Positions 1-51,194 of a DNA stretch of 64,000 nucleotides are shown here, piece by piece (position 1 is the first letter of the stretch; every line of letters begins with the position of its first letter). The notes beneath the pieces were generated by a model. It ran no database searches. It saw only the letters and a list, made by a program, of their open reading frames with translations, and was not told where the DNA came from. The stretch is from Opitutia bacterium. GTDB lineage: Bacteria > Verrucomicrobiota > Verrucomicrobiia > Opitutales > T3Sed10-336. The stretch is taken from NCBI GenBank assembly GCA_050506795.1, contig JBJHCF010000004.1, forward strand, positions 64,001-128,000, in the 5' to 3' direction. Both the position numbers and the translations under genes were made by a program.

Positions 1-647
1 ACGATTACGATGGCTGTATCCTGATTGGAACGACGGCAGACCTTGGTGATTTCGCGGAGTGTGTGCCGGATGTCGGCGTCCTTGTTGATGTCGCCGATAT
101 TCACCTCGCCGAAAGGATCGATGTAGATGACATCGGGTTTGATCAATTCGAGGGTGTCGAGCCACTTCTTTTTGATGTCGTCAGCGCCAAGACAGATAAA
201 GGCGTCGTCGATCTCGCGAACGACGTGAAAGAACGTGTGTGTTCCGACCAGGCGTTTCTGCTCGGGCGTAAGGCCGCGAGTCATCCGTTGGTAATCGTGT
301 TGAAGTCGGTGGATGCTGTTCTCGGTGCCGATTAGAAGGTGGCGTAGCGGTTTTTGATAGGTGGACAGGCCGGCGACGGGCCAGCCGAGGATTTGGGAAA
401 TGGCAATCTGCATCGACAGTCGGCTTTTCCCAGTGCCGCCCTGGCCGACCATGTTCGTCTGCTGTCCGAGGGCAATGACGCCGTCGCCGAGGACGTTTAC
501 CTTCGGCGGGAGCTTGATCGTGTCGAGCTGATCTCCGGTGAAAACCGTGTAGGGCTTCGGCGGAGGGTTGGTCGAGTTCTCGGCGGCGGCGAATTGGGGA
601 TCCTCGGTGGCATCCCAGATTTCTCGTGGTGTTTCTGGCTCGTTCAT
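1..647 (-). CDS. RepA/SF4-type (AAA_25) helicase, runs off the window edge
   Basis: Not in the ORF track; translated by hand from ATG 647 (ATGA overlap with the primase stop): MNEPETPREIW...MVGQGGTGKSRLSMQIA (Walker A)...LIGTENS...PDVIYIDPF (Walker B)...DTAIVIV. Confidence 0.85.
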   Translation of the reverse strand, partial: MNEPETPREIWDATEDPQFAAAENSTNPPPKPYTVFTGDQLDTIKLPPKVNVLGDGVIALGQQTNMVGQGGTGKSRLSMQIAISQILGWPVAGLSTYQKPLRHLLIGTENSIHRLQHDYQRMTRGLTPEQKRLVGTHTFFHVVREIDDAFICLGADDIKKKWLDTLELIKPDVIYIDPFGEVNIGDINKDADIRHTLREITKVCRRSNQDTAIVI

Positions 648-1516
648 GCGTGGGAAATGGGTTCGATGTTGAAATGAAGGATGTCCTGGCGAACTCCGGT
701 ATCGCGTCGACCGCCGGGCAGACGGACCAGTTTGGCAGGATCCCATAGCGTGGGATCGGCCCCGAGAAAGACTGCGTGACGGAAGAAGCGGAGCTTCCCG
801 TATTCGGATAGTCCCTCCACGAGGAACCAGCCGTGCAGGGATTTGCCTCCGGACCAAACGACGAGGATCAGGGGCCTCTGCTTGGAATGAAGCGAGGAAA
901 GGATCGCTGCCTGTTCCCGAAGCGTTCCCCGGTCGAACTCGATAACTTGATACCGACGGCTGCGGGTCGCGTTATCGTGACAGCGCGGAGATGGTTTGCC
1001 GGACTGATTGATTCCGGTGGGTGCCGTCATCGCGTTGGCCACGATGAACTGCATGTTCGATTCGAGGCCGCGCCATTTTTCTCGCGGTTGTGTCTGGGCA
1101 CTGCGGGTGTCGAGCGCGAGGCACAATAGCGCGTCTGTTGGATAGAGGCGGTCAATGACTTCTTCGCTGGTCACATCGACTGGTGTGGACCCGAAAAGAA
1201 TAGGGCCAGCCTTCCGCCGATCCCAGGCATCCTGATTGAAAGGAGGCCACGGCAAGGCGGGTTTGGTCGGTCGCGGTAAAACCGGGCCTCCTGTTTCAAA
1301 CGCCCGCTCGACAGCGCGTGCGATCTCGGGCCGGAAGTCGCGGTCGCCCCATCGAGTGGCGACCGCTTCCAGAACGAGGCGGATCTTTTCCGGCGAGGCG
1401 TAGTGGCGAGCATTTCTTGCGACGGTGAAGAACCAAAGGTTTCGATTGCCGGGAGCGGGAGTCTGCTCAAGGAGTTCGGCTAGGGAGCGTGGTAAAGGAT
1501 CAAGTGTGGCCATCAT
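644..1516 (-). CDS. Archaeo-eukaryotic primase (AEP/RepB'-like)
   Basis: Motifs VIEFD, WSGGKSLHGWF, DPAKLVRLPG. Start reassigned to ATG 1516, which forms an ATGA overlap with the polymerase stop. Confidence 0.75.
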   Translation of the reverse strand: MMATLDPLPRSLAELLEQTPAPGNRNLWFFTVARNARHYASPEKIRLVLEAVATRWGDRDFRPEIARAVERAFETGGPVLPRPTKPALPWPPFNQDAWDRRKAGPILFGSTPVDVTSEEVIDRLYPTDALLCLALDTRSAQTQPREKWRGLESNMQFIVANAMTAPTGINQSGKPSPRCHDNATRSRRYQVIEFDRGTLREQAAILSSLHSKQRPLILVVWSGGKSLHGWFLVEGLSEYGKLRFFRHAVFLGADPTLWDPAKLVRLPGGRRDTGVRQDILHFNIEPISHA

Positions 1517-3348
1517 TTGCAGTAGGTTTGGGTTTCGATGCCTTCGGCAGCCACGGGCAAGCCGGGCATCCATGCTGGTGTCTGGGCGAGCAGGTTGGTC
1601 ACCTGCTCGACACCGATGCCGGAGTCTTCCGGCACTTCGCAGATCACTTCGTCGTGAACTGTCCAAAGGATGCGAATACCCGCGTCATGAATTCGGAGCA
1701 GGCCTTCGGCGAAAACATCCCGTGCGGTAGCCTGGACGAGGTTTTCGGTCAGCTTCCCGCCATACCAATGAAGACGGGGGCCGCCTCGTTCGGTTGCGGC
1801 CGTCAGTCCGTCCTCGTCGGCTACGTCGAAGTAGCGGATAACGCGATGCGACGGCAGGCGCATGTGAAACGTGTGACCAGCGTGGCGGCGCATCGATTCC
1901 TCCAGCGAGGCCCAGAAAGCAACCGTTGCAGGGTTGGCTTTGCGGAAGTCGTTCACCGTCGCCCGGGCCTCGGAATGGGAGATTTCGAGGCCGTAGATCT
2001 TGGCGAGGTTCTTGAAGGTCGCGGCGCCCGCGCCGTAGCCCAAGCCGATGACGCGGCATTTGGCGAGGAGGTAGAGACGGGGGTTTTCCTCCTTGAGCTT
2101 GCCGCCCGTCCACCCCATCGAAACCTCCGCGTGCGCCTGGTAGATAGGCAGGCCGTCGGCAATCTTTTCAAGAAGGTCGCGATCTCCGACCATCCACGCG
2201 AGCACTCGCGGTTCGATCTGCGAGAGGTCGGCGGTGATCAGCTTGTGCCCCGGGCGAGCACGAAGGCAGCGGCGTGGGTCGACGCCGTGAAGCGGCTCGC
2301 GGTTGAAGTTTTGGAAGTTCAATCCCGCGTCTCCGGCCCAGCGGCCGGTGGCGATGGCTCCGAAGTATTTCAGGCTGAAAGGGAGCGTGCTATCGGGGCG
2401 ACACCGGTCGCGCATTGTTTCGAGGAGCCGAAGCATCCGGTTCGACTTTCTCCAGTTGCGGATGTGGCCAATCCATGGAAAGCGTTCGCCGTAGCGATGC
2501 TCCCATTCTTCGCAGGCCGGATCGTCCTCGCTCGTCGAGGGTGGAGGCGGAAGATTGTGCCGCCCACATTCGATGGCGAGAGCCTTCGTGCTGGTCGGCT
2601 TTTCGCGGCCAGCCCACGGGAGAGCCCGTTCTGAATCCGCGCATTGTTGGGCGAGAATCGCAATGCCGGCGTCGACGGCTTTGCGGTCGAGATAAACGCC
2701 ATGCTCGCCCTGCTCCACTGTGAGACGCGAAAGACGCCGTTCCTGAGCGGGCCAGTGAAGCGAATACCCAAGCCATAGATCGCATGCGAGCTTGGCGTCT
2801 TCGAGCGCGTAGCCGAGAAGCTGGTCGTCCTGGAGCAAAGTGCGCGATTGGAGCCAATCGGTTCCCTTCATTGCTTTGCGAATGGCCTTGTTTGGCTTCC
2901 GTCCCAGAAGGTGCTGAGCAGCACCCTCCAGATTACGCGGGGCCTGGAGATAGACCGCGAGAGCGGCCGTGTCGTGCCATTCCCGCGGGGCGACATCAGC
3001 CGGGGCGATTCCGAGCTCCTGGAGCCGGGAGAAGACGGCCCGGTCGAAGCGGCTGTTGTGCGACACCCAAATGCACCCGGAGAATTCGTGCCATGGGCAT
3101 TCCTTTGGGTGACCAACGAATTGACCGTGAGGTCCCCAAAAAGAGACCAGGTAGCAATCGAATTTCTTGTCGGCGACGTAGCGGTCGACGCCAACGGCCT
3201 TCAGGTCGTAGCCCTTGCAATAGAAGGTCTCGGTGTCGAAACCGTAGACCCTATTGTCGGTAGCTGTAACCATATTCGGACCAGAGGTCCGTGATGGCAG
3301 ACTCAATTCCATCTGCGGCGAGGGTGTGAAGTTGGTGGAAGCGTTCAT
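1513..3348 (-). CDS. Phage-type family A DNA polymerase with 3'-5' exonuclease and no 5'-3' exonuclease
   Basis: ExoI FDTET, ExoII HNSRFD, ExoIII YALED; TGRW; motif A ADLSQIEPR; motif B AKCRVIGLGYG; ENLVQATARD; motif C VHDEV. Confidence 0.93.
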   Translation of the reverse strand: MNASTNFTPSPQMELSLPSRTSGPNMVTATDNRVYGFDTETFYCKGYDLKAVGVDRYVADKKFDCYLVSFWGPHGQFVGHPKECPWHEFSGCIWVSHNSRFDRAVFSRLQELGIAPADVAPREWHDTAALAVYLQAPRNLEGAAQHLLGRKPNKAIRKAMKGTDWLQSRTLLQDDQLLGYALEDAKLACDLWLGYSLHWPAQERRLSRLTVEQGEHGVYLDRKAVDAGIAILAQQCADSERALPWAGREKPTSTKALAIECGRHNLPPPPSTSEDDPACEEWEHRYGERFPWIGHIRNWRKSNRMLRLLETMRDRCRPDSTLPFSLKYFGAIATGRWAGDAGLNFQNFNREPLHGVDPRRCLRARPGHKLITADLSQIEPRVLAWMVGDRDLLEKIADGLPIYQAHAEVSMGWTGGKLKEENPRLYLLAKCRVIGLGYGAGAATFKNLAKIYGLEISHSEARATVNDFRKANPATVAFWASLEESMRRHAGHTFHMRLPSHRVIRYFDVADEDGLTAATERGGPRLHWYGGKLTENLVQATARDVFAEGLLRIHDAGIRILWTVHDEVICEVPEDSGIGVEQVTNLLAQTPAWMPGLPVAAEGIETQTYCK

Positions 3349-3354
3349 CGCAGG

Positions 3355-3579
3355 TTACCTTTTCCGGGGGTTGACGGTGCAATTTTCCTCCAGCGCCTGC
3401 CGGACGTTCGCCACGTCGAAGCGAACGAGGTGTCCGATTTTGACGTAAGGAATTTTCCTTTGCGCCTGCATCTGGCGAACCCAACGCAAGGAGGGTCTGC
3501 TGGTTTCGTCGAAAAGGGCTTCGAGGAGCCCGTGAGCGTCTACGAGTTTGGTCGATGGAATGTTGGTCGAAGTATTCAT
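3355..3579 (-). CDS. Excisionase-like small HTH protein
   Basis: 74 aa with SLRWVRQMQAQRKIPYVKIGHLVRFD, a typical Xis/HTH_17 winged-helix pattern. Confidence 0.75.
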   Translation of the reverse strand: MNTSTNIPSTKLVDAHGLLEALFDETSRPSLRWVRQMQAQRKIPYVKIGHLVRFDVANVRQALEENCTVNPRKR

Positions 3580-3696
3580 GATCTGGTGTCATTTATGAGA
3601 AAGTGATGAGTGGTTGGCGGTGGTCCCGATCACCCCCCGGCGTATGCCGGAGGATGACGGGCGTTCACCTATAGTCGGCGATACAACCAGCGGGCG

Positions 3697-3984
3697 TTAC
3701 AGCCGCAGGAAGTCGTCCGAATGAACGAGGATCCAGAAGCCGGGGCGGTTGCGTTCGGAGAGGCAAACGACCGGCGTTTTCTTTTCGGGAGTCGCGAGTT
3801 TCTTCGCCTCGTCCCAGGTGCGAATCGCGGCGAAGCGTTCACGCTGCTTACACTCGATGAAGAGCGTCGGGTGAAGCGTGTCGGAGCGGGTGAGCTTCGA
3901 GTTGCCTCCCGAGAGCGCGTTCCGCTCGGTCTTGAAGAACCTGGCGACGCGGCGCTCGAATGCCTTCCAGCACTTATCGGCCAT
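3697..3984 (-). CDS. Hjc-like Holliday junction resolvase / small PD-(D/E)xK nuclease
   Basis: KAFERRVA...SD...FIECK pattern. ATG 3984 is preceded by a GGAGG RBS and overlaps the upstream stop. Confidence 0.7.
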   Translation of the reverse strand: MADKCWKAFERRVARFFKTERNALSGGNSKLTRSDTLHPTLFIECKQRERFAAIRTWDEAKKLATPEKKTPVVCLSERNRPGFWILVHSDDFLRL

Positions 3985-4798
3985 TGGGTGCCTCCCTCCC
4001 GTGCGAGCGTGGATCGTATCCCTTCTGGTGGCGCCACATGGCGCATGCCATTTTGAATACTTCCCATTCAGCGAGGAGCTGCCGGGGCCCGTAGCTGACA
4101 ACCTCGACGCGGCCCGGCTCCGTTGTGCTGATGAACACGTTCGCGCCGTAGAGGCGTCCGAGGTTTTCTTCGCCCCAGTAAGTCGCGCCGTAGGCGGCGA
4201 TCTGCATTGCCTGCCCGTCGTAGGCGGTCACGGCGAGGCCGGGTTTGGTTTTGCGCGTCTTGAAGTCGATCACGCCAATCCCGTTGGTGCCGTAGCGGCA
4301 GGCGACATCCATTGTTCCGGCGAAGCCTTCCCTTTGGTTGACGAGGCAGAGCTCGCGCTCGACGAACTGGATCTGTTTGGCTTGCTGCCACGCGATCACC
4401 GGGCTGGTGTAGACTTCCAGATCCGGCGGGACCGGGACGCCGTCGAAGTGCTTTTCGAGAGCGTCATGGATCCGACTGCCGAGATCGGCGGCCTGCTCGA
4501 CCTGGGCGAAGGCTTCCTCGATGATGCGGTCGGCGAGATAGTCGTCGCTTTCGCCCTCGGTGCGGTTGAGCCGCATCGAGGCCAACGCGACCTGCTTCAT
4601 CTTCCACTTGTCGAGTTGTGGCTTGGCAAAAATCCCGAGGATCGAAGTGACGCTCGGATAGAGCCCGAGGCGTTTCGCGTCGCGGATCGTCGTCGGCCGG
4701 AGCCCATCACCGCCCGCCTTGGGCAGGCGGTGACAGGGCGTTCCGTCGGCTTTATACCAGTGCGAGGACTGGACTTGGTCTTTCTTGAGAACGGCCAT
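3974..4798 (-). CDS. Phage PD-(D/E)xK exonuclease (RecB-like)
   Basis: PSVTSIL, GSRIH, VEREL, AGTMD, IDFKT, QIAAY motifs. Confidence 0.85.
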   Translation of the reverse strand: MAVLKKDQVQSSHWYKADGTPCHRLPKAGGDGLRPTTIRDAKRLGLYPSVTSILGIFAKPQLDKWKMKQVALASMRLNRTEGESDDYLADRIIEEAFAQVEQAADLGSRIHDALEKHFDGVPVPPDLEVYTSPVIAWQQAKQIQFVERELCLVNQREGFAGTMDVACRYGTNGIGVIDFKTRKTKPGLAVTAYDGQAMQIAAYGATYWGEENLGRLYGANVFISTTEPGRVEVVSYGPRQLLAEWEVFKMACAMWRHQKGYDPRSHGREAPNGR

Positions 4799-4815
4799 GG
4801 TCGATTTCCTCCGGG

Positions 4816-5382
4816 TCAGAACGGGCAGTTATCGTCGGAATCGACTTCCGGGTTCCACGCGGCGTGAGGCGCGGGAGCCGGAGTCGCTTGTGGGGCCGGG
4901 ACGGCAGGCGTCTGCGGTGTCACCGGAGCCTTGGCGAAGGCCGCGAGCGGAAGGACCTGGCTCTTCAGCTGGTCGATCACCGGAGCAATGCCAACGATGT
5001 TGGCGAAGGTCCGGGTGCCGTCGCGGGAGGTCTTTTGGCCGACCGTGATCATCGCGCCCGCGCCCTTCAACTCGCAGTAGTCCCAGCCGTATTTCGGCGG
5101 GTGGCCGAGCCATGCGGTGAGGAACTTGAAGAGGTTCGACTTCGGCGATCCCGAAATGCGAAACTCGTGGGTCTGCACCCTGTAAATGCGGCCGTCCTGG
5201 CCGCGAAAGCCGAAGAGGAAACGGGTAATGTCGAGCGTTTCCTTCTCAGCAGGATTTTCGAACTTTGGGCGCTCAACGCCGAACTGGTCCTGGATTTCCA
5301 GGCATGTCGCGATTGAGGGCCCGGAGGGGGCGACTTCGGTGATGTCGAACCCGCTCGATTCTGGTTGTTTGAGTAGTGCCAT
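4816..5382 (-). CDS. Putative single-stranded DNA-binding protein, phage type
   Basis: Beta-rich core, Pro/Ala linker and acidic tail DSDDNCPF resembling the SSB DDDIPF tip; adjacent to the exonuclease. Confidence 0.65.
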   Translation of the reverse strand: MALLKQPESSGFDITEVAPSGPSIATCLEIQDQFGVERPKFENPAEKETLDITRFLFGFRGQDGRIYRVQTHEFRISGSPKSNLFKFLTAWLGHPPKYGWDYCELKGAGAMITVGQKTSRDGTRTFANIVGIAPVIDQLKSQVLPLAAFAKAPVTPQTPAVPAPQATPAPAPHAAWNPEVDSDDNCPF

Positions 5383-5467
5383 GATGATTTTGATTCATCA
5401 GGCAGACTCTCCATTGCTCGGGCGTCGTGCCGTCGCTTCCCGGTGAATCTGCCTTCACCGGAAAGGC

Positions 5468-5505
5468 GCTACTTTTGGAGTAGCAAATGCTACTTTTGGG
5501 GTAGC
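5468..5505. promoter_or_regulatory. Tandem palindromic operator-like sites GCTAC-N7-GTAGC
   Basis: GCTACTTTTGGAGTAGC (5468-5484) and GCTACTTTTGGGGTAGC (5489-5505), 21 bp apart, upstream of the replication operon. Confidence 0.65.
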
Positions 5506-5508
5506 ATT

Positions 5509-6807
5509 TTATTTTTTCTGAAAAAATTTCACGCGCCAGACCTCCCCGAGGGCGGGGGTGTATGTGAACTCATTTCCTTTGCGAACGCGGGGCGAAATGT
5601 ATTTTGCAGCGGGGGCGCAACGGGATTCGAGCGCGGCCAGAGCGACGTTGAGCGCTTTCGTGACGGCTTTGCGGGCACGTTCGTGGCGGCTGTCGACGCG
5701 GAGGCGCCGGCCTTTTCCCGTCACCTTGCGAAGATGGGCGCGGATTTCATCGAGTTCGGCTTCGATCTCGTCGGCCTCCATTTCGCGACCGGCGTCGCGG
5801 GCATCGTCAGCGGCGGCCTTCAGCTCGGCCACTTTGCGGGCGTAGGCAAGCTGGGCGGAGCGATCCGTCGCGGCGATGCCGCCGTCCCCTTCGGCGCTGG
5901 CAGCGAGCCCTTCGAGAGATGCAGTGACCGGTTCGGCGGGATCGAGATCCTCTTGCAGGTCGATCGGGCTGAAGGAGAGATCCGGTTGGTTGAGTAGCCG
6001 GGCGAGATACTGCATGCCGCGCATGTCGGGAATCGTTCCGTGGTGCCCCAGAAAGTTCATGCGCCACGTCGCTCCCTCGCAGGTCAGGGCGTATTCGGGC
6101 GGCGGTTCCTCCACTGCATTGAAGTCCGACAGGGACTCAGCCGGAGCGAACGAGGCACATAGCTCCCGCCATGCGGCGAGAAAGGAGTCTGTAGCGGCGA
6201 GGCCGCGGGGACCGAGCTCGAAGCCGCCGTCGAGGGCGAGCGGACGGCATCCTTTGCGTTGCAGAAGCGCGGCTACGTCAGGCGTGAGGTGCCGGAGGGT
6301 CGGGCTGAGGAGGATGAACGGAAAACGGTCCGCAAGGATCTGCCGTTCGACGAACGTTTTGAAATCCTGTGGATTGGATTGCCGGGTAAAAAGAATTTGC
6401 ACGGGAGCGGAAGCGGTTCCTGGAAGATTCCCCAGAAAGAGAGACGCTCCAGGCAGGCCGAGCGGGGTGGGATTGAACGGGAGTCGGAGAATCTTTCCCA
6501 CTTCCTCCATGATTCTCCGGTCCTGAGGTTCGTAACGGATCAGTTCGGCACGTTCGAATGAACGGCGGGGGCAGCGGCCTTCGTCGCAGATGCCGACGAG
6601 AGAGCCGTCCTGGTGCTCGACGATGCGATAGTTGCAGGCTGTCTGGCGACTGCGCTCGCAGGAAGCAATCGGCGACAGCCCCGGCACTGGCGCAAGGTAG
6701 CGCTGCATGAGGGGAAACTCGTCGCCGAGGGCGAGCTTCCAGACCGGCTCGCGGATCGGCCCGAGCCGCACATCAAGACATTTCCAAAACAAACTCTTGC
6801 TGCTCAT
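5509..6807 (-). CDS. Hypothetical protein with probable C-terminal DNA-binding domain
   Basis: C-terminus GMQYLARLL..P / ERARKAVTKAL...RVRKGNEFTYTP resembles HTH tails of transcription regulators; N-terminal Cys cluster (C...C...CDEGRC). Start uncertain (6807 or 6834). Confidence 0.6.
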   Translation of the reverse strand: MSSKSLFWKCLDVRLGPIREPVWKLALGDEFPLMQRYLAPVPGLSPIASCERSRQTACNYRIVEHQDGSLVGICDEGRCPRRSFERAELIRYEPQDRRIMEEVGKILRLPFNPTPLGLPGASLFLGNLPGTASAPVQILFTRQSNPQDFKTFVERQILADRFPFILLSPTLRHLTPDVAALLQRKGCRPLALDGGFELGPRGLAATDSFLAAWRELCASFAPAESLSDFNAVEEPPPEYALTCEGATWRMNFLGHHGTIPDMRGMQYLARLLNQPDLSFSPIDLQEDLDPAEPVTASLEGLAASAEGDGGIAATDRSAQLAYARKVAELKAAADDARDAGREMEADEIEAELDEIRAHLRKVTGKGRRLRVDSRHERARKAVTKALNVALAALESRCAPAAKYISPRVRKGNEFTYTPALGEVWRVKFFQKK

Positions 6808-7966
6808 GACCGGTAACCATTCCTCGTTCGACAAATCCGCGACGCATCAGCCATTCCTCGATCAGTTGGCTATCGTCGTCCCGCGTGTAGAGGGCGACAT
6901 TGGTCGGCTTGATCGTCACTGAGCGTGGCGTTGGGTTGTCCCGGAACCGGACCTTGAACGTCGCCTGGAGGAGGCGAGCCAGCGGCGGGATCTGAAATTC
7001 CCGTGACGCCATGGCATTGAAGAGGTCTTCGGCTTTATGGCTGCGGACTTCCCTTTCGAGATCTTCCAGTGCGTATTCCAGCTTCACGAGGCGGACCCAA
7101 TTCAGGCCGGGAACATCCACGCACTCGACCGAGGACGCGGCGTCGCGGCGGATCGGATCGAGGGTGTATTTGTTCGTTTCCGGAAAGTAATTCTCGCGGC
7201 CGAACAGCTCCAGGCTGAAAGTTGTGCGGTAGCGGTCGCGAAGCGTCGGCGTCCTGGCATTGATGCGAATTTCATTCGTCAGGCCGTCGAAGACCAGGAC
7301 GTCAAATTTCTCCGGCCGGAACAGGACGGAAGCGGCGCTGCCGTCGTCGGCGACGGTCGACTCACGCCGGTAACAGTCTCCGTGGCGGATCAGAAACCAC
7401 GTTTCGTGGTTGCGGGTGTAGGTGAAGATCCGGCAACCGGTCCCCATCCGACGCTTTTGAAACCAGACGTCGAGGGAGCGTTCGATCGCTTTGATCTGCG
7501 CATCGCCAGGTGGTTCGAATGCTTCTCCGCCTCCTCCCTCGGCACTGAAATACTCAAAGGCGCGGGCACGGAGTGGGAGTCGCTCGTAATGAACCGCCTT
7601 CGCTGCCGCCGGATCTACAATATACAGGAGCATCGCGGCCTCGGCGGCAGTGGCGTCGTTGGGCAATTGGAGGCCGGCGTTCTGACAGGCCTCATAGACG
7701 GCGTCTGCCGCATCGAGGGTGGCCAGCTCGCTGACGCAAAAGATGGCATCGATCAGCTCGCGGGGCGTTTCTTCGCTTGGGGACAGAAAGGTTTGGGTGA
7801 TGGCAGGGAGAACATTGGAATTCTCTGGGGCAGAAAGAGCATCCAGCTCAATCTGACGGGAATCGAAAAACCCCCGGTAGGGATCGAAAAACCTCCGTAA
7901 GGTTTCGCGATTTGTGGAGTGGAGCGCCTTGGGACGCGTGAAGATCAGGGAACTGAATGAGGACAT
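6773..7966 (-). CDS. Conserved hypothetical protein of prophage-like elements
   Basis: About 397 aa, overlapping the next gene; FLIRHG, FRPEKFDVLVFD, KYTLDP, RSVTIKP, EEWLMRRGF blocks recalled from an uncharacterised prophage family. Confidence 0.65.
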   Translation of the reverse strand: MSSFSSLIFTRPKALHSTNRETLRRFFDPYRGFFDSRQIELDALSAPENSNVLPAITQTFLSPSEETPRELIDAIFCVSELATLDAADAVYEACQNAGLQLPNDATAAEAAMLLYIVDPAAAKAVHYERLPLRARAFEYFSAEGGGGEAFEPPGDAQIKAIERSLDVWFQKRRMGTGCRIFTYTRNHETWFLIRHGDCYRRESTVADDGSAASVLFRPEKFDVLVFDGLTNEIRINARTPTLRDRYRTTFSLELFGRENYFPETNKYTLDPIRRDAASSVECVDVPGLNWVRLVKLEYALEDLEREVRSHKAEDLFNAMASREFQIPPLARLLQATFKVRFRDNPTPRSVTIKPTNVALYTRDDDSQLIEEWLMRRGFVERGMVTGHEQQEFVLEMS

Positions 7967-8197
7967 TGCCAAGCTGCTTCAAAAACCGTCCGGTCCTCTG
8001 ACACTCGCACCGCCCGTCAGCTTCGCGGGGCCGGCCCAATGGCCTCTGGATCAGCCAGACCCAGGGCGGAAAGTCACCTCGTCCGCCAGCGGCAATCCGT
8101 AGCCTCCGTTCCCTGGACGGGAGGGGTGGCGACTGCGGATCGCATTTGCCAAGGAAAACAAGGGATCTCGAAAGTTCCAGAAAAAAAGCGAGGATTC

Positions 8198-8228
8198 TTG
8201 ACACTCCCGGGCGCTCCGGTGATAGATC
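8198..8228 (+). promoter_or_regulatory. Possible sigma70 promoter of the metal operon
   Basis: Perfect TTGACA at 8198-8203; only a weak TGnTAGATC -10 match with long spacing. Confidence 0.3.
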
Positions 8229-8238
8229 TTCTTTTGAA

Positions 8239-8661: not shown

Positions 8662-8760
8662 GTTCCTGAATTCGGGTTTGAGCGGCCTTTTACCCAAGGC
8701 CGTTTTCCAACTGCTTCGGCGTATCGACGCCGGATCTTTCTCCGAATCCAGGAACTTTTT
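8661..8760 (+). promoter_or_regulatory. Three-way-junction cis RNA structure occluding the czcC RBS
   Basis: 8661-8675 pairs with 8742-8756 (14/15); inner hairpins at 8682-8703 and 8715-8734; U-run follows; CAGGA SD-like sequence lies in the 3' arm. Confidence 0.65.
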
Positions 8761-8761
8761 C

Positions 8762-10048
8762 ATGAATGCAGCTATACGTTTTTCCTTATTTTCATTTCCT
8801 TCTTTTCTAGCGACCGTCCTCGTGGCGGCGGCTTCTCCAGCTTTCGGCGAGGAGGCCGTCCTGACTGTGGACGAACTGGTCGCGGAAGTGCTCGGGAGCA
8901 ATCCTGAACTCGCGATCTACGAGGCCGAAATCGCCGCGGCCCGCGGCGAGCGGCGTCAGTCGGGGCGATGGGCGAACCCGGAGTTTTCCTTGGAGGCGGG
9001 TCATCAGCGGATCCGGGGGAGCGAAGGGGCCGGAGCGGCCGAGGGCTTGGCCTGGGCCGCATCGGTGGCTCAGCCGATCGAGTTTCCGGGGCGGCTGGCG
9101 CTGCGCAAGGCGATCGCCGACCGGAACACGGAGTTGGCCAATTTGGGCCTGGAAAACTTCCGACGGGTGCTGGAGAACCAAGTTCGTTCGCTGGCCTATT
9201 CGCTCTATGCGGCACGAGGGTCGGCGGATGCCGCCGACGATGTGGCCGCCCGCGCCCGGGAGTTGACGCAGGTTGTGCTTCAGCGCGAGGTCGGCGGTAT
9301 CTCCCCGTTGCTGGAAAGCCGCATTCTGGAGAGCAGCGCCCTGACCTTGGAACAGCGGCGGCAGGAGGCGCGGCGCGTTTATCAACGGGCCTTAATCGCG
9401 CTGAACCAGTTGCGGGACGCGCCCGCCGAGACGCCGGTGAGACTGGCGGAGGCTCCCTTGGAATTCCCCGAACTTCCTCCCGTGCCGGAGCTCGTCAGCG
9501 GCGCCTGGAGAAATTCGTTTGAGGCGCGGGCGAGGCAGGTGGAGTTGGAGCAGCAGGGCTTTCGGGTGCGCCTGGAGAGGAATGAGCGCTATCCAACCGT
9601 CACGGCGGGGCCTTTTATCTCGCAGGATAGAGCGGGCGAGAAGGAGACAGTGGCCGGGGTGAGCGTTTCGTTCGCTCTGCCGTTATGGGATCGAAACGAG
9701 GGCAATATCGATGCCTCGCGGGCGCGGCTACGGCAGGCTGAGGCGTCGCTGCTCGTGACGCGGCGCGAACTGGAACGGCGCGTAGTGGAGCGGGCATTGA
9801 ACTATCAGTCCGCGAGGCAGGCCCTGGCGGAGTTGAGACCGGAGGCGATCTCTGAGTTCGAGGAGGCGGCCGAACTGGCGGAGCGTCATTATCGGTTAGG
9901 GGCAATCCCGATCAGCACGTATTTGGAGATGCAAACCGCCTACCTCGACGCTCTGGACGCTGTGCTCGGCCTGCGGCAGCAAACGCTGGAGAGCCGACTG
10001 GAACTGGAAATTTTGACGGGAAACTTTGAGAAGGGAACTGAACGATGA
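8762..10048 (+). CDS. czcC: TolC-family outer membrane factor, CzcC-like
   Basis: Signal peptide, NPEL and NPEF repeats, VSVSFALPLWDRNEGNI, YRLGAI; first structural gene of a CBA operon. Confidence 0.88.
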   Translation: MNAAIRFSLFSFPSFLATVLVAAASPAFGEEAVLTVDELVAEVLGSNPELAIYEAEIAAARGERRQSGRWANPEFSLEAGHQRIRGSEGAGAAEGLAWAASVAQPIEFPGRLALRKAIADRNTELANLGLENFRRVLENQVRSLAYSLYAARGSADAADDVAARARELTQVVLQREVGGISPLLESRILESSALTLEQRRQEARRVYQRALIALNQLRDAPAETPVRLAEAPLEFPELPPVPELVSGAWRNSFEARARQVELEQQGFRVRLERNERYPTVTAGPFISQDRAGEKETVAGVSVSFALPLWDRNEGNIDASRARLRQAEASLLVTRRELERRVVERALNYQSARQALAELRPEAISEFEEAAELAERHYRLGAIPISTYLEMQTAYLDALDAVLGLRQQTLESRLELEILTGNFEKGTER

Positions 10049-10812
10049 ATTCTATTTTGAAAATGATTTTTTTGAGCGCTGCCACGATAGGCATTGCGCT
10101 GGCGGTAAGCGGGTGTGCGAAGACAGAGGGTGCCGATCAGGATCATGAGGCGGAGCAGGCGCAGGATCATTCCGGTAACTGGGTGTTCGACGAGGGCCGT
10201 GGCGTCAGGCTGACCGAGGCCGGGAGGAATGTTGCTGGCATCGAATTGGCGGAAGCGGTTTTCGCCGAAGGCGGCAACGGCACGATAACCGCGATGGGAC
10301 AGGTTTTCGCCGTGGACCGGAGCCGCGGCACGGCGCGGGCAAGTGTGGCCTTGTCGGCGCGGCGGGCAAATGGAATTGAGCCAGGCGCGCCAGTTAACGC
10401 TGGAACACGACCGGGCGACTTGCACCTTGCCGGGCACGTAGAGCGAGTCGATCGACAGGCGGTTCGGGTGACCGGTCAGGTCGAGGTGATCGTGAGTGTC
10501 CCCGCAGCTGAGGCTCACTTGCGCGAAGGCTCGTTTCTAAGCTTCAGCTTCGATCAACCAGGCGCGCAGGGCGACGAGATGTTACGCATCCCCGCCTCGG
10601 CTCTTCTTCCGACGGCTCGCGGTGATTTCGTTTACGTGGTGAATGGAAACCATTTTTTTCGGTCCCCGGTGCAAACGGGGCGGAAAAGCGGCGATTTCAT
10701 CGAGATCGAAGACGGGTTGTTCGAAGGCGACGTGGTGGTGTCGGCGGGTAAAAAGCATCTCTGGCTGATCGAGCTGCAGGCGATCAACGGAGGTGAAGCC
10801 TGCGCCGACTGA
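10045..10812 (+). CDS. Short periplasmic adaptor (CzcB-like lipoprotein)
   Basis: Lipobox VSGC; C-terminal IPASAL...VYVV...VQTG...IEIEDGLFEGDVVV membrane-fusion-protein motif; only 255 aa. Confidence 0.75.
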   Translation: MNSILKMIFLSAATIGIALAVSGCAKTEGADQDHEAEQAQDHSGNWVFDEGRGVRLTEAGRNVAGIELAEAVFAEGGNGTITAMGQVFAVDRSRGTARASVALSARRANGIEPGAPVNAGTRPGDLHLAGHVERVDRQAVRVTGQVEVIVSVPAAEAHLREGSFLSFSFDQPGAQGDEMLRIPASALLPTARGDFVYVVNGNHFFRSPVQTGRKSGDFIEIEDGLFEGDVVVSAGKKHLWLIELQAINGGEACAD

Positions 10813-10830
10813 CACTAAGAGGACCACGGA

Positions 10831-13800
10831 ATGCTGAACAAACTAATTGAGTTCTCCATCCGGCAGCGCGGCTTCGTTCTCCTGCTGACGGTCGTATTGA
10901 TCGTCGCCGGGATCTGGTCAGCCTACCATCTCCATGTGGATGCGGTGCCGGATATCACCAGCACGCAAGTGCAGATCAACACGGCAGTGCCCGCGTTGGC
11001 GCCCGAGGAAATCGAGCAACTGGTGACATTCCCCATCGAGAGCCGCATGTCGGGCATGCCGGGCCTCGTGGAGTTGCGCTCGCTTTCGCGTCCGGGTTTG
11101 TCGCAGGTGACGATGACATTCGCCGACGGCTCGGACGTATATCGTTTGCGGCAACTCGCGATGGAGAGGCTTCAGGAGGCCATGGATGAGATTCCGGCCG
11201 GCCTTCAGCCGACGCTTGCGCCGATCAGCACGGGGCTGAGCGAAATCTTTTACTATGCGGTCGGTTTTGCCGAGGACGCACCGAATGTGCCGGAGAGCGA
11301 ATACGAGCGACTGCTGGAGCTATCGCAGATCCAGGAATATACGGTAAAGCCGCTCTTACGCGCGACGGCGGGCCTCGCCGAGGTGAACACTTCCGGAGGT
11401 TACGAGAAAAAGATTCTTGTTCAGCCCGATCCCGTGCGCCTCACCCAGCTAGGTCTCACTTTCGACGAGTTCGCCGAACGGCTGAAAGGCGGCTTCGTCA
11501 ATGTCGGCGGCGGCCTGCTGGAGGTGGGCGGTGAACAAGTGGTGATCCGTTCGAATTCGAGGATGACCCGAAGCGAGGAAGTTGCAGGCCTGCCTTTGAA
11601 GTTCGGGGCGCAGGTGAATCCGATTCTGGTGGGCGACGTGGCCGAAATCGTGGTTGGGTCGAGCATCCGGACCGGCGCGGCCACCATCAATGGAGAAGAG
11701 GCGGTGCTGGGAGCGGCGATCATGATGGCCGGGGAAAACAGTCGCGTCGTAGCCCGCGCGGTGAGCCAGCGTCTGGCGGAGATCCAAAATCGCATGCCGG
11801 AAGGTGTGGTTATTACCCCGCTTTACGATCGGGGCGATTTGATCGACGCCACGATCTCGACCGTGCGCCGCAATCTCACTCATGGAGCCGTTCTGGTCAT
11901 CGTCGTTTTGTTCGCGATGCTGGGCAACATTCGGGCGGCGCTGATTGTCGCGGCGGTCATCCCGCTTTCCATGCTGGCGGCATTCATTGGCATGACACTG
12001 GCGGGCGTCTCGGGAAATCTGATGAGCCTTGGCGCGATCGACTTCGGGCTCATCGTGAGCGGCGCGGTCATTGTCGTGGAAAACTGCATGCGACGGCTCG
12101 GCCTCCTTCGCCACCGGATCGGGAGAGATCCCCGCGCCGAGGAACGGCGGGCCGAGGTTCTCGCCGCTTCACGTGAGGTCGCCAAACCGATGTTCTTTGG
12201 TGTGGCCATCATCACCATCGTCTATGTGCCGATCCTGGCGCTGACGGGCATCGAGGGGAAAATGTTTCACCCGATGGCGCTGACTGTCATGTTCGCCCTA
12301 ACGGGCTCGCTGCTTTTGGGCCTGACTTTCGCGCCCGCGCTGAGTTCCTGGGTGATCGCCGGGAGAATGACCGGCGAAGATAGTTTCCTCGTCCGCGCTT
12401 TGCGCTGGATCTACCATCCGATTCTTCGATTCGCGGTTCGCTTTCCTGTGGCCGTGGCGGTGGGAGCGGCGGCTCTTTTCGCTCTAGCGGTGCTGACGTT
12501 TCTGAGGTTGGGGGCGGAGTTTATCCCGCAGCTCGACGAAGGCTCGCTCGCCGTGCAGATGGTCCGCAGCAACAGCGTCGGCATTCAAACGTCGTTGGAG
12601 CTGCAACAGCAGGCGGAGCGCCTGCTGCTGGAGGAGTTCCCCGAGGTCCGACAGATCTTCTCGCGCATCGGGACGGCGGAGATCGCCACCGATCCGATGG
12701 GCCCGAACGTTTCCGATACGTATGTTCTGTTTCATCCGCAGGAAACCTGGCGCGAGATCAACGACCGGCGAGCACGGAAGGACGATCTGGTTGCCATGAT
12801 GCAGCGGGTCCTCGACCGGAATATTCCCGGACAAGTGGTTTTGTTTTCCCAACCGATCCAGCTTCGTTTCAACGAAATCATGGCCGGCGCCCGCGCCGAC
12901 ATCGCTGTGAAAATTTTCGGTGAGGATCTGGAAACGCTGGAGGAGCAGGCGTTCGCCGTCCGCGATGTGCTACGCACTATTCCCGGCGGAGGCGACGTGG
13001 AATTCGACGCCATGGGGCGGGTGCCGATGCTGGAGATCGTGCCGGATCGGGAGGCGATGCGGCGACTGAATATTCATCCCGACGAAATCAACCGCGTCAT
13101 CCAGACCGCACTGGCGGGAAGAGAGGCGGGACTTTTCATCGATGGGAACCGGCGATTTCCGGTCGTCGTGCGGCTGCCCGAAGCCCAACGCCACGATTTC
13201 GACGCGATCAGGGACCTGCCGGTGCGGACGGATGGCGGCGGCATTGTCCGGCTGGGCCAGGTTGCCGACTTGCGAGTCGAGGACCGCGTGGGAACAATCA
13301 CGCGGGAAATGGCTGAGCGTCGGGCGGCCATCCTGATCAATCTGCGCGGGCGCGATACCGAAAGCTTCGTGCGCGAAGCGGAGGCGCGCTTGCGCGATGA
13401 AGTGGTCTTGCCTCCCGGATACGCGATCGAATTTGGCGGGCAGTTTGAAAACCTGCAACGGGCGCGGGCCCGGCTGGCTGTGGTTGTTCCGATTGCATTG
13501 TGCCTGATCTTTTTCCTAATCTTTTCCTCCACGGGAAGCATGCAGCGGTCTCTCGTCATCTTTACGGGCGTGCCGTTTGCGGTGACTGGCGGGGTCTTCG
13601 CCCTCTGGCTGCGAGACATGCCGTTCAGTATCTCGGCCGGGATCGGCTTTATCGCTTTGAGCGGGATCGCCGTGATGGATGCGCTCGTGCTCGTGAACTG
13701 CTTCAACGACTTGCGGCGAGAGGGCAGACCGTTGCGGGAGGCCGTGATGGAGGGGGCGATGATGCGCCTGCGGCCCGTGTTGATGACCTCGCTGGTCGCC

Positions 13801-14055
13801 GGCCTTGGCTTTGTGCCGATGGCATTCGCTACCACCCTTGGCGCCGAGGTGCAGCGTCCGCTGGCGACGGTTGTGATTGGCGGCATCCTCTCCTCGACTC
13901 TTTTGACACTTCTCGTCCTGCCGGGCCTCTATCTAATCACCGAGCGTCGCGACAATCGCAATACCGGAAAACTTTCAGAGAACGCAACGTCGGCTTCCGT
14001 CGTCAGTCACGACCATACAGAAGCAATCATTTCCCAACAAAAGACCACAAAATGA
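10831..14055 (+). CDS. czcA: Heavy-metal efflux RND permease, CzcA/CusA family
   Basis: DAVPDIT, NLMSLGAIDFG, EGKMFHPMA, GAEFIPQLDEG, RLRPVLMT, EVQRPLATVVIGG. Confidence 0.95.
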   Translation: MLNKLIEFSIRQRGFVLLLTVVLIVAGIWSAYHLHVDAVPDITSTQVQINTAVPALAPEEIEQLVTFPIESRMSGMPGLVELRSLSRPGLSQVTMTFADGSDVYRLRQLAMERLQEAMDEIPAGLQPTLAPISTGLSEIFYYAVGFAEDAPNVPESEYERLLELSQIQEYTVKPLLRATAGLAEVNTSGGYEKKILVQPDPVRLTQLGLTFDEFAERLKGGFVNVGGGLLEVGGEQVVIRSNSRMTRSEEVAGLPLKFGAQVNPILVGDVAEIVVGSSIRTGAATINGEEAVLGAAIMMAGENSRVVARAVSQRLAEIQNRMPEGVVITPLYDRGDLIDATISTVRRNLTHGAVLVIVVLFAMLGNIRAALIVAAVIPLSMLAAFIGMTLAGVSGNLMSLGAIDFGLIVSGAVIVVENCMRRLGLLRHRIGRDPRAEERRAEVLAASREVAKPMFFGVAIITIVYVPILALTGIEGKMFHPMALTVMFALTGSLLLGLTFAPALSSWVIAGRMTGEDSFLVRALRWIYHPILRFAVRFPVAVAVGAAALFALAVLTFLRLGAEFIPQLDEGSLAVQMVRSNSVGIQTSLELQQQAERLLLEEFPEVRQIFSRIGTAEIATDPMGPNVSDTYVLFHPQETWREINDRRARKDDLVAMMQRVLDRNIPGQVVLFSQPIQLRFNEIMAGARADIAVKIFGEDLETLEEQAFAVRDVLRTIPGGGDVEFDAMGRVPMLEIVPDREAMRRLNIHPDEINRVIQTALAGREAGLFIDGNRRFPVVVRLPEAQRHDFDAIRDLPVRTDGGGIVRLGQVADLRVEDRVGTITREMAERRAAILINLRGRDTESFVREAEARLRDEVVLPPGYAIEFGGQFENLQRARARLAVVVPIALCLIFFLIFSSTGSMQRSLVIFTGVPFAVTGGVFALWLRDMPFSISAGIGFIALSGIAVMDALVLVNCFNDLRREGRPLREAVMEGAMMRLRPVLMTSLVAGLGFVPMAFATTLGAEVQRPLATVVIGGILSSTLLTLLVLPGLYLITERRDNRNTGKLSENATSASVVSHDHTEAIISQQKTTK

Positions 14056-14510
14056 ATACACCATACGTCATGAAACTAAAGAACGCACTTCTCGTATCTT
14101 TCGCATTGATGCTTGCGGGAGGAGCGGTCCTTGCCGCCGCTGAAAAGAGACAGCCCGGGCCGAACGGCGGGCTACTGCTGAAAACGGAGCCTCGAGCCGA
14201 GTTTTTTGTCAATAAGGACCGAAAGATCGAGATCACCTTTCTCGACGCTGAGCTAGAACCGGTGCCCCTGGAGCAACGAAACGTGCGGGTGACGGCAATG
14301 GCCCCTTCAGGACGAAAAATCCTGGAGTTTGACCGGAAGGAAAACGTCTTTATTTCCAAGGACCCCCTGCCGGACGGCGACGGCTACACCGTCGTTGCCC
14401 AGATCTGGCAGAAGGCGGATGACCGGCCGGAGAACTTCCGGATTGTGTATGAAGACTACGTCTGCGGCGGGTGCGACCTGGTGGAGTACGCCTGCATCTG
14501 CGATGACTGA
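14052..14510 (+). CDS. Exported putative metal-binding protein with C-terminal CxxC...CxC
   Basis: ATG 14052 overlaps the czcA stop (ATGA); signal peptide, GPNGG, tail YVCGGCDLVEYACICDD. Confidence 0.75.
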   Translation: MNTPYVMKLKNALLVSFALMLAGGAVLAAAEKRQPGPNGGLLLKTEPRAEFFVNKDRKIEITFLDAELEPVPLEQRNVRVTAMAPSGRKILEFDRKENVFISKDPLPDGDGYTVVAQIWQKADDRPENFRIVYEDYVCGGCDLVEYACICDD

Positions 14511-14530
14511 GATCTGACACCGATCGCGCG

Positions 14531-16684
14531 ATGAGCGAAATACCCGCAGGCCGGGCTGGGAAAGAGACAGTCCTCGAAATCGAGGGGATGGATTGCTCCG
14601 AAGAAGTGAAGCTACTGGAGAATGTTCTCGGCGGTGTGGCGGGTGTCTGCTATGTGCGGGCGAATCTTGTAATGAACCGGATCACCGTTATTCATGACGA
14701 GCCGGTTGAAATATCGGATCTGGTTGCAGCGATCCAAACCACCGGTATGAAAGCCCACCCACCAAAACGGGCGGGCACGGACCGGCTTGCGCGCCGCAGT
14801 GATCGGGGGCGATTGATGGCGGTCGCGCTGTCGGGCGCGCTCGCCATCTCCGGGCTTGTTCTGCAATGGACAGCCGCGGCCCCGGAGGCGGTGAGAATTG
14901 CGCTGTTTGCCGGAGCGATAGCTTCGGGCGGCTGGTATATCGTCCCCAAGGCGGTGGGAGCGGCCCGCCGGATGACTCCCGATATGAACCTGCTGATGAC
15001 GGTGGCTGTGGCAGGCGCGGCCCTCATCGGCGAATGGGGAGAAGGGGCCATCGTCGTCTTTCTGTTCGGACTCGCCGAATTGCTCGAAGCGATGAGCGTG
15101 AGTCGAGCTCGCCGGGCCATTCAGTCGTTGATGGCACTCAGTCCCCAAACGGCGCTGGTGAAAAGGGGTGAGCGATTCGAGGAACTGCCTGCTGAGTCGG
15201 TTCAAATCGGCGAAGTGATCGCCGTGCAGAACGGCGCCCGGATTCCGCTCGACGGGGTGGTCCTCTCCGGTTCGTCAGCCGTCGATCAAGCAGCGATCAC
15301 CGGTGAATCGATGCCAGTTTCAAAATCTTCAGGCGACGAGGTGTTCGCCGGAACGCTCAATGGCGAGGGCGCGATGGAGATCCGCGTCACCCGCGAGGCG
15401 TCCGGTTCGACACTGGCGAAGATCATTAAGCTGGTCGAGGAAGCGCAGGAGCAAAAAGCGCCATCGCAACGGTTCGTCGATGTATTTGCGAAATATTACA
15501 CGCCGATTGTGATGCTCCTGGCGGGGGCGGTTTTTCTCCTGCCGCCTCTGCTCCTCGGCGCACCGTGGGAGACTTGGTTTTACCGATCCCTCGTTCTGCT
15601 CGTGATCGCCTGCCCGTGCGCGCTCGTCATCTCTACCCCTGTTTCCATCGTTTCGGCGTTGACCGCCATGGCCCGCCGGGGAGTTCTCGTTAAAGGAGGC
15701 GCTTTTCTCGAATCGGTGGGAAAACTGCGGGCATTGGCCGTGGACAAGACCGGAACGATCACGCAGGGACGACCGACGGTGACGGAGGTGATTTCCCTCA
15801 ATCGCAACCAGGAAGGGGATGTCCTCCGAATCGCGGCGGCGATCGATGTGCATTCGCAGCACCCGCTGGCAAAAGCGGTGGTCGAGACAGCCGAACGGCG
15901 CGGCATTACCTATCCCCGTGGCGCGGATTATCGCGCCCGGACCGGGAGTGGGGCCGAGGCGACGATCGATGGCCATCGTTACTTTGTCGGCAACCATCGC
16001 CTCGCGCATGAATTGGGCGTCTGTTCGCCGCAGGTAGAGGGGATTCTCGCAGAGATCGAACAACGCGGTGAATCCGTAGCGGTTGTCGGGCACATGCCCC
16101 ACGACGATTGCCCGGGCGACATCCTCGGCGTCGTGGCGCTGGGAGATGCCATTCGGCAGGATGCTGCCGAGGCGGTACGGGCACTTCATCAGGCGGGGGT
16201 TCGCAATGTCGTGATGTTGAGCGGCGACAATCAGAAGACAGTGGACGCGATCTCGCGGCAAGTCTGCATCGACCAGGCCTGGGGGAACCTGCTGCCGGGC
16301 GACAAAATCGCCCGCGTGCGGGAGCTGGTGAAACGGCATCACCACGTCGGCATGATTGGCGATGGGGTGAACGATGCTCCCGCCATGGCTGCCGCAACAG
16401 TTGGAATCGCCATGGGCGCGGCGGGCACGGATACCGCGATTGAGACGGCGGACGTTGTCCTGATGGAAGACGACCTGAGCAAGGTCGCCGAAACCATCCA
16501 CCTCGGCCGGCGGACCGTCAGAATCATTCAATTCAACATCGCTTTGGCTATTGGAGTCAAAGCTCTCTTTCTGGCGCTCACGATTGCCGGTTATGCCAGC
16601 CTATGGCTGGCCATAGCCGCCGATACCGGCGCGACGTTAATTGTCATTTCTAACAGCCTGAGGTTGCTGCGAACTCGAGAATGA
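14531..16684 (+). CDS. cadA: P1B-type heavy-metal ATPase (CadA/ZntA, Zn/Cd/Pb)
   Basis: GMDCSEE metal-binding domain, TGES, CPC, DKTGT, HP, GDGVND, TM7 Lys and TM8 ADTG. Confidence 0.93.
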   Translation: MSEIPAGRAGKETVLEIEGMDCSEEVKLLENVLGGVAGVCYVRANLVMNRITVIHDEPVEISDLVAAIQTTGMKAHPPKRAGTDRLARRSDRGRLMAVALSGALAISGLVLQWTAAAPEAVRIALFAGAIASGGWYIVPKAVGAARRMTPDMNLLMTVAVAGAALIGEWGEGAIVVFLFGLAELLEAMSVSRARRAIQSLMALSPQTALVKRGERFEELPAESVQIGEVIAVQNGARIPLDGVVLSGSSAVDQAAITGESMPVSKSSGDEVFAGTLNGEGAMEIRVTREASGSTLAKIIKLVEEAQEQKAPSQRFVDVFAKYYTPIVMLLAGAVFLLPPLLLGAPWETWFYRSLVLLVIACPCALVISTPVSIVSALTAMARRGVLVKGGAFLESVGKLRALAVDKTGTITQGRPTVTEVISLNRNQEGDVLRIAAAIDVHSQHPLAKAVVETAERRGITYPRGADYRARTGSGAEATIDGHRYFVGNHRLAHELGVCSPQVEGILAEIEQRGESVAVVGHMPHDDCPGDILGVVALGDAIRQDAAEAVRALHQAGVRNVVMLSGDNQKTVDAISRQVCIDQAWGNLLPGDKIARVRELVKRHHHVGMIGDGVNDAPAMAAATVGIAMGAAGTDTAIETADVVLMEDDLSKVAETIHLGRRTVRIIQFNIALAIGVKALFLALTIAGYASLWLAIAADTGATLIVISNSLRLLRTRE

Positions 16685-16750
16685 TCCTCAGATGCGGAGG
16701 AGAACGACGACCAGCTGTGGGGACGGACGAGACCTTGATCTTTAAAGCTG

Positions 16751-16770
16751 ATTTGCCACTTATTTGCCAA
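16751..16770. repeat. Direct repeat ATTTGCCA x2, candidate integrase arm-type sites
   Basis: ATTTGCCAC at 16751 and ATTTGCCAA at 16762, 11 bp apart, in AT-rich DNA about 120 bp inside the att core. Confidence 0.5.
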
Positions 16771-16884
16771 TTTAGAAGATTTTTGCTGCTTTTTTATGCA
16801 TCTAGCTGCGCCGACATTTATTCGTAAGATACTGATAAATGCACCTTAAAGACATCTACGTGCAGTATTAGGAAAACTACTATC

Positions 16885-16910
16885 GGGTTCGAATCCCTCT
16901 CTCTCCGCCA
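16885..16910 (+). repeat. att site: duplicated 3' end of tRNA-Ser
   Basis: GGGTTCGAATCCCTCTCTCTCCGCCA is a T-loop, acceptor 3' strand, G discriminator and CCA; no tRNA 5' half upstream. Confidence 0.85.
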
Positions 16911-17126
16911 TTCGACGCGTTCCGCTCCGCTCCACTTGTTGGAAATCCCGAGCGGAGCCGAGGGGCTCATGGCAGGCCCCGGAAAACTCAAACCCGATAG
17001 TTTGCTCAAGAGCGTCGACCGTTCCCGGGCATCGGGTGCTGTGCAGGAATCACGAACCCCATAAACAGGCTTGCCGGTGCGGCGGGGCGCCGCAAGAATT
17101 GGGTTAATTTTAGATTCTTGAGTGCT

Positions 17127-19166: not shown

Positions 19167-19328
19167 TTTCAATCCGGACAACTTGCGACGTTATGAATCC
19201 ATGTGGCTCGCCATCAGCATGTTTCGAGGACCAGGCGTCGCTTCGGTATCGGCTATCATCGGCGAGACTTTTTTTTTCTCAAGTAAATTTTTGCTTTTTG
19301 AAACCGCTGCTTTAACGTGGTTTTTGTT

Positions 19329-19778: not shown

Positions 19779-19826
19779 TCCAGGATTCGATCCAGACGGA
19801 ACGGATCCGGTTTGAATCCCGACTTT

Positions 19827-51152: not shown

Positions 51153-51167
51153 AGCTACCAATCAAGA

Positions 51168-51194
51168 GTGGAGGGCGGCGCTCCTGCGCCGCCG
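51168..51194 (+). repeat. REP-like palindrome, TGGAGGGC family
   Basis: GTGGAGGGCGGCGCTCCTGCGCCGCCG; related copies at 54226, 54288, 57078, 57111, 61769. Confidence 0.75.

Follow-up and report, generated by a model that had tools for sequence, protein, structure and literature searches.

The window analysed here is the stretch of 64,000 nucleotides at positions 64001-128000 of contig C4 in the genome under study (G000; window position 1 is C4:64001), and its positions 1..16912 form the right half of a 32.0-kb integrated element (C4:48857-80912, no strand assigned). This is a head-only phage-like element of an apparently undescribed family, and it carries a metal-resistance load and an accessory family A DNA polymerase (PolA). 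Its genes include a complete Mu-type head and packaging module, and neck and tail genes were found neither in it nor in the clade of its relatives. On balance, the element is probably a capsid-forming satellite that builds its own head and borrows neck and tail from a co-infecting tailed phage.

The left 15 kb of the element, containing the tRNA-Ser gene, the left attachment site (attL), the integrase and the genes for the head and for packaging, falls outside the window, upstream of it. The right attachment site (attR; window 16885-16912, plus strand) is a 28-bp exact direct repeat of the 3' end of tRNA-Ser(GCT), the other copy being attL (C4:48857-48884), and these two are the only exact copies in the 4.94-Mb assembly. 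The length of 32.0 kb is set by attR repeating the 3' end of the intact tRNA-Ser(GCT) gene (C4:48790-48882, plus strand) 32 kb upstream. A tyrosine integrase (phrog_1) is encoded at C4:48921-50282 on the plus strand. The preliminary description, made from the window, had recognized the tRNA-Ser attachment site and advised looking upstream for an intact tRNA-Ser gene and a tyrosine integrase, both of which are present, and for elevated coverage, which is not: in contigs of sequencing run X1, depth is approximately 14-20 inside the element and 15 across both ends. With attR spanned by a single X1 contig and no change in depth at either end, the element is truly integrated and shows no sign of induction. 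Neither excision nor induction was visible among the matches listed, which comprised contigs of four runs per end, and contigs cannot reveal rare forms. The best-matching run carries the label mine tailings and may be where the assembly came from. Elsewhere in the genome, a second integrase stands beside an att-like sequence with three mismatches (C1:308269-309563), and a 41-aa fragment (C6:41703-41825) shows 73% identity to the integrase of the element.

The head and packaging module is located 4-10 kb upstream of window base 1 and is encoded on the minus strand of C4 as TerS (59389-59889), TerL (58019-59392), a Mu-type portal (56637-58019, PF06074), a gpF stub (56347-56640), a Mu-type protease (55232-56350, PF10123), a 132-aa decoration-like protein (54815-55213), of which the modelled fold resembles capsid decoration proteins, and the major capsid protein (MCP; 53845-54762, phrog_1005). 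The earlier impression of an element with "no visible virion genes" was mistaken, because the edge of the window had cut off this module. The accompanying proposal to look upstream for terminase, capsid and head/tail genes was borne out for the terminase, the capsid and a full head, and no neck or tail was found. PHROG and family scans of the element genes gave no match to connector, tail, HNH nuclease or lysis families; small conserved membrane genes sit after the MCP. Endolysin was likewise unmatched in 48 genes scanned, mostly from tailed sisters. Past the MCP, still on the minus strand of C4, are a 97-aa protein (p97; 53540-53833) and a 436-aa protein (p436; 52180-53490), both virus-like by ESM Atlas, which serves as a lead, then a DUF6694 lipoprotein (51072-51947), a 164-aa predicted lipoprotein (50489-50983) and a 56-aa membrane protein (50322-50492). 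Both p97 and p436 were considered as conserved entry proteins and rejected, since they are missing in the other members examined. Phages in GenBank yielded only distant matches (portal 30%, PolA 26% and MCP 27% identity), the top portal match being that of Akkermansia phage Chantilly (30.5%).

Searches with the MCP and the portal retrieved relatives from IMG/VR, from GTDB genomes titled mostly Opitutales or Opitutaceae, and from metagenomes; the search for syntenic modules that had been recommended at the outset was rewarded by relatives with the same head gene order in Opitutales genomes. In close relatives, the order is TerS-TerL-portal(+gpF stub)-protease-decoration-MCP, usually followed by one or two small membrane genes and then by the integrase and tRNA or by defence cargo. 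The clade is monophyletic among tailed phages both for the MCP, in a quick tree (36 rows, Shimodaira-Hasegawa-like approximate likelihood-ratio support 99), and for the portal (30 rows, FastTree support 100). The tailed phages around it encode a Mu gp36-type adaptor directly after the MCP. Among de-duplicated loci with at least 2 kb downstream of the MCP, grouped by MCP identity, a head-tail adaptor profile matched none of the 34 loci in the clade and 26 of the 33 outside it; many of these 26 had helped to build the profile, five metagenome loci that were not used for it also matched, and one partial clade MCP landed in the outside group. A portal-retrieved set of 80 metagenome loci, 20 of which extend at least 1 kb past the MCP, gave adaptor matches in none of 13 clade-type loci (several of them duplicates of IMG/VR records) versus all seven sister-type loci. 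Kin being non-independent, these counts are descriptions and not significance tests. Comparison with PHROG of 89 genes, drawn from four near-complete members plus some others and for the most part excluding core head genes, yielded no connector match and a single weak tail match of 43 aa; the sister phages match adaptor, tail-tube and tape-measure families. Judged from these loci, the missing neck and tail is a clade-wide trait.

Within the order, the portal profile matched 15 of 401 genomes, a number that includes G000 and tailed sisters. The sister with the closest head genes is a tailed prophage of 35.8 kb in genome G320 (portal 38%, MCP 51% identity). A tailed, adaptor-bearing prophage is co-resident with a head-only element in two of five genomes checked, and the complete genome CP011265 (IMCC26134), in which the adaptor gave no match, holds two copies of such an element. 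A circular member was sought, and the five IMG/VR records checked are classed as linear or provirus. Several members (L004, L007, L015 and L024) encode signal-peptide-like and repeat proteins between or after the head genes, and another (L081) has two portal copies and a reverse transcriptase (phrog_1423) past the MCP. Four loci with MCPs outside the clade (L047, L048, L053 and L060) also lack adaptor and tail downstream and are possibly independent head-only or domesticated loci.

TerL, portal and MCP are under purifying selection, the ratio of non-synonymous to synonymous substitution rates (dN/dS) being mostly 0.03-0.15, with a maximum of 0.29 at near-saturated distances (at most 18 pairs). 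The ratio is 0.05-0.23 for the protease and 0.09-0.78 for the decoration protein, which retains 40-98% identity in pairs with at least 95% MCP identity. Eight members are bounded by att sites (with two mismatches in G061 and one in G062a) and measure 32.0, 33.3, ~33.8, 36.5, 36.6, 37.1, ~37.3 and 23.2 kb; those of G063 and G067 were omitted from this count, as the right att was not found in 48 kb. Seven of the eight are therefore 32-37 kb, similar to the tailed sister of G320, and the 23.2-kb member has a frameshifted MCP. The integration targets include tRNA-Ser, -Leu, -Pro and -Glu and tmRNA, and by this variety the family appears to have spread after the loss of the tail.

The portal itself differs at its clip. 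By alignment with the Mu and JBD30 portals, a segment that we take, from its presumed position in the portal domain, to be the clip tip is 40-41 aa long with a near-invariant Gly-rich motif in all 30 clade portals, versus 37-38 aa and variable in all 29 others. A model of the portal monomer has a predicted local distance difference test score (pLDDT) below 50 in the clip region and is uninformative on a plug. In Mu, an arm of gp36 reaches into the clip of the portal and may also be the stopper of DNA release (PMC11915804), so a head without gp36 would have to be closed by the adaptor of a helper or by some new seal. The longer conserved clip tip suggests some change of function where the adaptor docks.

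The replication genes form a co-oriented operon on the minus strand, as the preliminary description had stated, with stop/start overlaps at three junctions (Exo/Hjc, PolA/AEP and AEP/helicase) that agree with its view of partial coupling. The operon comprises an SSB-like/NGO0469-family protein (window 4816..5382; NF046043, E 4e-12, below cut-off), a PD-(D/E)XK exonuclease (3974..4798; phrog_298, E 5e-23), a Holliday-junction-resolvase-like (Hjc/RusA-like) protein (3697..3984; weak matches to phrog_244/2002), an Xis-like helix-turn-helix protein (3355..3579; phrog_1840), PolA with a 3'-5' exonuclease (1513..3273; PF00476), an AEP-type primase (644..1516; phrog_2597, E 4e-5; acidic and His motifs located) and a 381-aa AAA_25 (RepA/SF4-like) helicase (PF13481, E 3e-19), the 5' part of which occupies window 1..647 and which continues upstream to C4:63502. 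The PolA replisome named at first was accordingly real. Two proteins of 441 aa (5509..6834) and 397 aa (6773..7966), also on the minus strand, have no family match; the former has distant homologues in some relatives and the latter a homologue in one. PolA retains what we take to be the three exonuclease motifs and motifs A, B and C, and by motif count its "762" position is Ile, with Leu in three viral relatives. Leu762 has been reported chiefly from temperate phages (PMC6302109).

PolA is accessory in the head-only family. It is present in two of 12 head-bearing members with a visible replication region; three of the 12 have the same primase-helicase block without PolA, and the others lack the block or have other helicase/primase sets. 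Among tailed phages, the swapping of polymerases is documented (PMC11348598). In single-protein searches of the 401 genomes, PolA matched eight, and in three of them the PolA module occurs with no head genes found: G132 (contig C3, L242-L245), G195 (C95 and C59, L246-L249) and G035 (end of C2, L075, the contig terminating within the helicase). These copies are 98-99% identical across genomes labelled as two families, and those of G132 and G195 lie in att-bounded elements at tmRNA of ~39.5 and 35.1 kb with the same integrase family. They carry deletions, frameshifts and truncated Exo, Hjc or PolA, and the G132 and G195 copies of PolA, primase and helicase differ by 18 non-synonymous and seven synonymous changes, which, in these small counts, is close to neutral. 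The head-less copies look like decaying remnants.

A possible life cycle for a capsid-forming satellite can be proposed from these genes. The integrase and Xis may excise the element, which could then replicate in a theta or recombination-based mode by means of the helicase and primase, with PolA in this member and the host polymerase in most relatives. Headful packaging would place the DNA in the element's own phage-sized head. This would account for the room left by the lost tail genes being taken up again by cargo, to 32-37 kb. Closure and delivery could then proceed through the Mu gp36-like adaptor and the tail of a helper. The metal pumps would repay the host in a metal-rich setting, as defence systems would in the relatives. 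Several observations weigh against a borrowed neck and tail. A particle, an excised circle and raised depth were all unseen in the X1 contigs, and four queries of the 97.8% complete G000 assembly found no second terminase, tape measure or adaptor, and hence no resident helper; three of five other host genomes are likewise without an adaptor match. The G000 portal is at most ~40% identical to the sister portals, and the clip-tip difference could equally mean a changed adaptor site. Furthermore, the known phage-inducible chromosomal islands of the capsid-forming type (cf-PICIs) carry genes for an adaptor and a connector of their own, and these determine which tail is taken (PMC10085698; bioRxiv 10.1101/2025.02.11.637232).

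Some of these points would suit an element that needs no tail, in which the altered clip seals the head by itself and entry occurs via the decoration protein, the small membrane proteins or membrane vesicles; we regard this as unlikely, yet as the strongest of the alternatives. It would account for the adaptor missing from 34 of 34 clade loci, for the long clip tip, whose motif is near-invariant in all 30 portals of the clade where the 29 others vary, for the rapid divergence of the decoration protein (40-98% identity, dN/dS 0.09-0.78), for small membrane genes past the MCP without a match outside the clade, and for the absence of a helper in G000. However, infection without a tail is not known to us for any HK97-type bacterial virus, the portal monomer model (clip pLDDT <50) shows no plug, and the membrane genes are missing from some members; by eye, a similar hydrophobic lipoprotein gene precedes the terminase in a tailed sister, so that a lysis role is as likely. 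It is unlikely, at about the same level, that the clade represents a neck- and tail-free HK97-type lineage in which the clip plugs the head, the decoration protein picks the target and metal-resistance or defence cargo of phage size passes among Verrucomicrobiota without a helper. Alternatively, the head genes could be kept as decoys or for interference against related tailed phages, the DNA of the element riding in the helper's complete virions. The element matches the sister phage genomes in size and the cargo of its relatives is mostly anti-phage defence, but interference rarely requires TerS, TerL, portal, protease, MCP and decoration protein together under purifying selection, which makes this idea improbable. 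Satellites known to interfere do so with a single gene or a few (PMC10085698).

The other explanations fare worse. Recent tail loss in an ordinary, decaying prophage could be read from the frameshifted MCP of the G065 member and from the lack of activity in the X1 contigs; yet the loss is common to an entire clade, whose stem is long and whose synonymous distances are saturated, the members occupy differing tRNA sites in several families, and the head genes are intact under purifying selection. This clade-wide pattern largely refutes decay, which we consider very improbable. Of the earlier suggestion of a prophage with a resistance moron, the viral head genes and the metal cargo stand, and the ordinary prophage does not, as neck and tail are missing here and clade-wide. 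Tail-less head genes under purifying selection would also be expected of a domesticated head operon retained by the host in the manner of a gene transfer agent, but the distribution is patchy (at most 15 of 401 genomes), and an own integrase, replisome and att sites, varied insertion sites and two copies in one genome make such domestication hardly credible. Least probable is a non-viral, self-synthesizing island based on PolA, a counterpart of pipolins, as the other half of the early suggestion, "non-viral/satellite", would have it. G132 and G195 do contain att-bounded elements that have this PolA module and integrase family and lack a head, but these are truncated and frameshifted with near-neutral changes, PolA occurs in two of 12 head-bearing members, where it adjoins primase and helicase, and the full head module refutes a non-viral island for the element studied here; the word "satellite" came nearest. 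A capsid-forming satellite with a borrowed neck and tail is thus the reading we favour.

The cargo of approximately 8.4 kb (window 8254-16684, close to the 8.5 kb first estimated) consists, as first described, of metal-resistance genes, namely a czcCBA-type resistance-nodulation-division (RND) pump and a ZntA-type ATPase, all on the plus strand. The first block (8254..14510) contains a small open reading frame (ORF), CzcC-like (8762-10048), CzcB-like (10045-10812) and CzcA/CusA-family RND pump (10831-14055) genes and a 152-aa ORF, and the second (14531..16684) is a heavy-metal P1B ATPase of ZntA/CadA type (TIGR01525 and TIGR01512, above cut-off). These proteins are at most 36% identical to host paralogues. 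In the relatives, cargo is largely defence, including restriction-modification, Ssp, Hma, QatC-like and other systems. In G063, 8-17 kb past the MCP (L026, L147), the defence cargo is succeeded by what looks by eye like an RcnA/RcnR-like pair and by a second czc-type operon (CzcA 47%). With no right att located there, these genes may lie within the element or beyond it. Run X4, from another study, contains an 18.5-kb contig aligning to window 4125-16897. It represents a sister element with a common block from the exonuclease to the metal cargo up to the att and with both flanks different; the run shows no close match to the head module of the G000 element. The metal block of the latter thus has a second context. 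Upstream of the window, a CopZ-N-like metallochaperone gene (C4:59964-60506, plus strand) is followed by a stretch of approximately 2 kb in which no gene was called, a pair of small ORFs and the end of the helicase gene at C4:63502. Within C4:60500-62490, one strand has 14 copies of a GC-GNA-GC mini-hairpin motif and the other none, the genome mean being 0.82 per 2 kb per strand, and a piece of at most 85 bp is common to four relatives. Outside the element, we take window 17118-17552, by eye, to be a lasso-peptide B2-like ORF and window 19317-21044 to be a SufU/SufS-like pair.

The elements of this family are phage-sized vehicles that use their spare room for restriction, Ssp, Hma and further defence systems or, in the present member, for metal pumps. 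Mobile elements of Verrucomicrobiota are little studied, and prophage finders would likely score such elements as defective prophages. The literature covered, as titles and abstract openings with few subscription papers, has no such elements from Verrucomicrobiota, and the supplementary satellite lists of PMC10085698 and PMC9618062 could include members.

A gene transfer agent stays at one locus, is inherited vertically and has neither an integrase nor a replisome of its own; the present element, with its own integrase and replisome and varied sites, is distinct from it. An intact tailed prophage requires neck and tail genes, none of which were found here. Casposons are integrative elements with a family B polymerase and cargo. 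Pipolins (PMC11551731) are att-flanked integrative elements with their own DNA polymerase and large cargo, but their polymerase is a primer-independent family B enzyme, in contrast to the dispensable family A polymerase with a primase, and the capsid genes, found here. VEIMEs (PMC9618062) are also integrative with cargo, some being linked to Verrucomicrobia and some having TerS or DNA polymerase genes; they encode no MCP, whereas this element encodes a whole head. Tycheposons are likewise integrative with cargo, and EPIPs (PMC12822802) and the Mulch/Flayer satellites (PMC10690885) differ in gene content. Temperate Planctomycetes-Verrucomicrobia-Chlamydiae phages with a Mu-like head (the G320 prophage and Chantilly), and Mu itself (PMC11915804), have the same order of portal, protease, decoration protein and MCP, and the length is similar (35.8 kb for G320). 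Their gpF is longer, and the gene for the gp36 adaptor and those for the tail, with tube and tape-measure matches in some, come directly after that for the MCP; the head-only clade lacks every neck and tail gene.

The closest likeness is to the cf-PICIs EcCIEDL933 and KpCIDSM30104, which share with this element an integrase, a replication module, att sites and their own capsid, protease, portal, TerS and TerL with no tail module; defence cargo, here found in the relatives, is a further likeness. The cf-PICIs are 10-18 kb long and have an adaptor, a connector and an HNH protein, whereas this family measures 23-37 kb (32.0 kb for the present element) with no match for any of the three. It further differs in its Mu-type head with a decoration protein, PolA in some members and Verrucomicrobiota hosts. 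Judged from its genes, the element would work like a cf-PICI and is set outside that group by adaptor and connector, HNH and size. In known capsid-forming satellites, an adaptor and a connector are retained, by which the head is sealed and the tail selected; both are lost from this family, with its head genes still under purifying selection. It may exploit a helper at an earlier stage, that of the portal, or deliver DNA without a tail, and either would extend the assembly rules of tailed phages.

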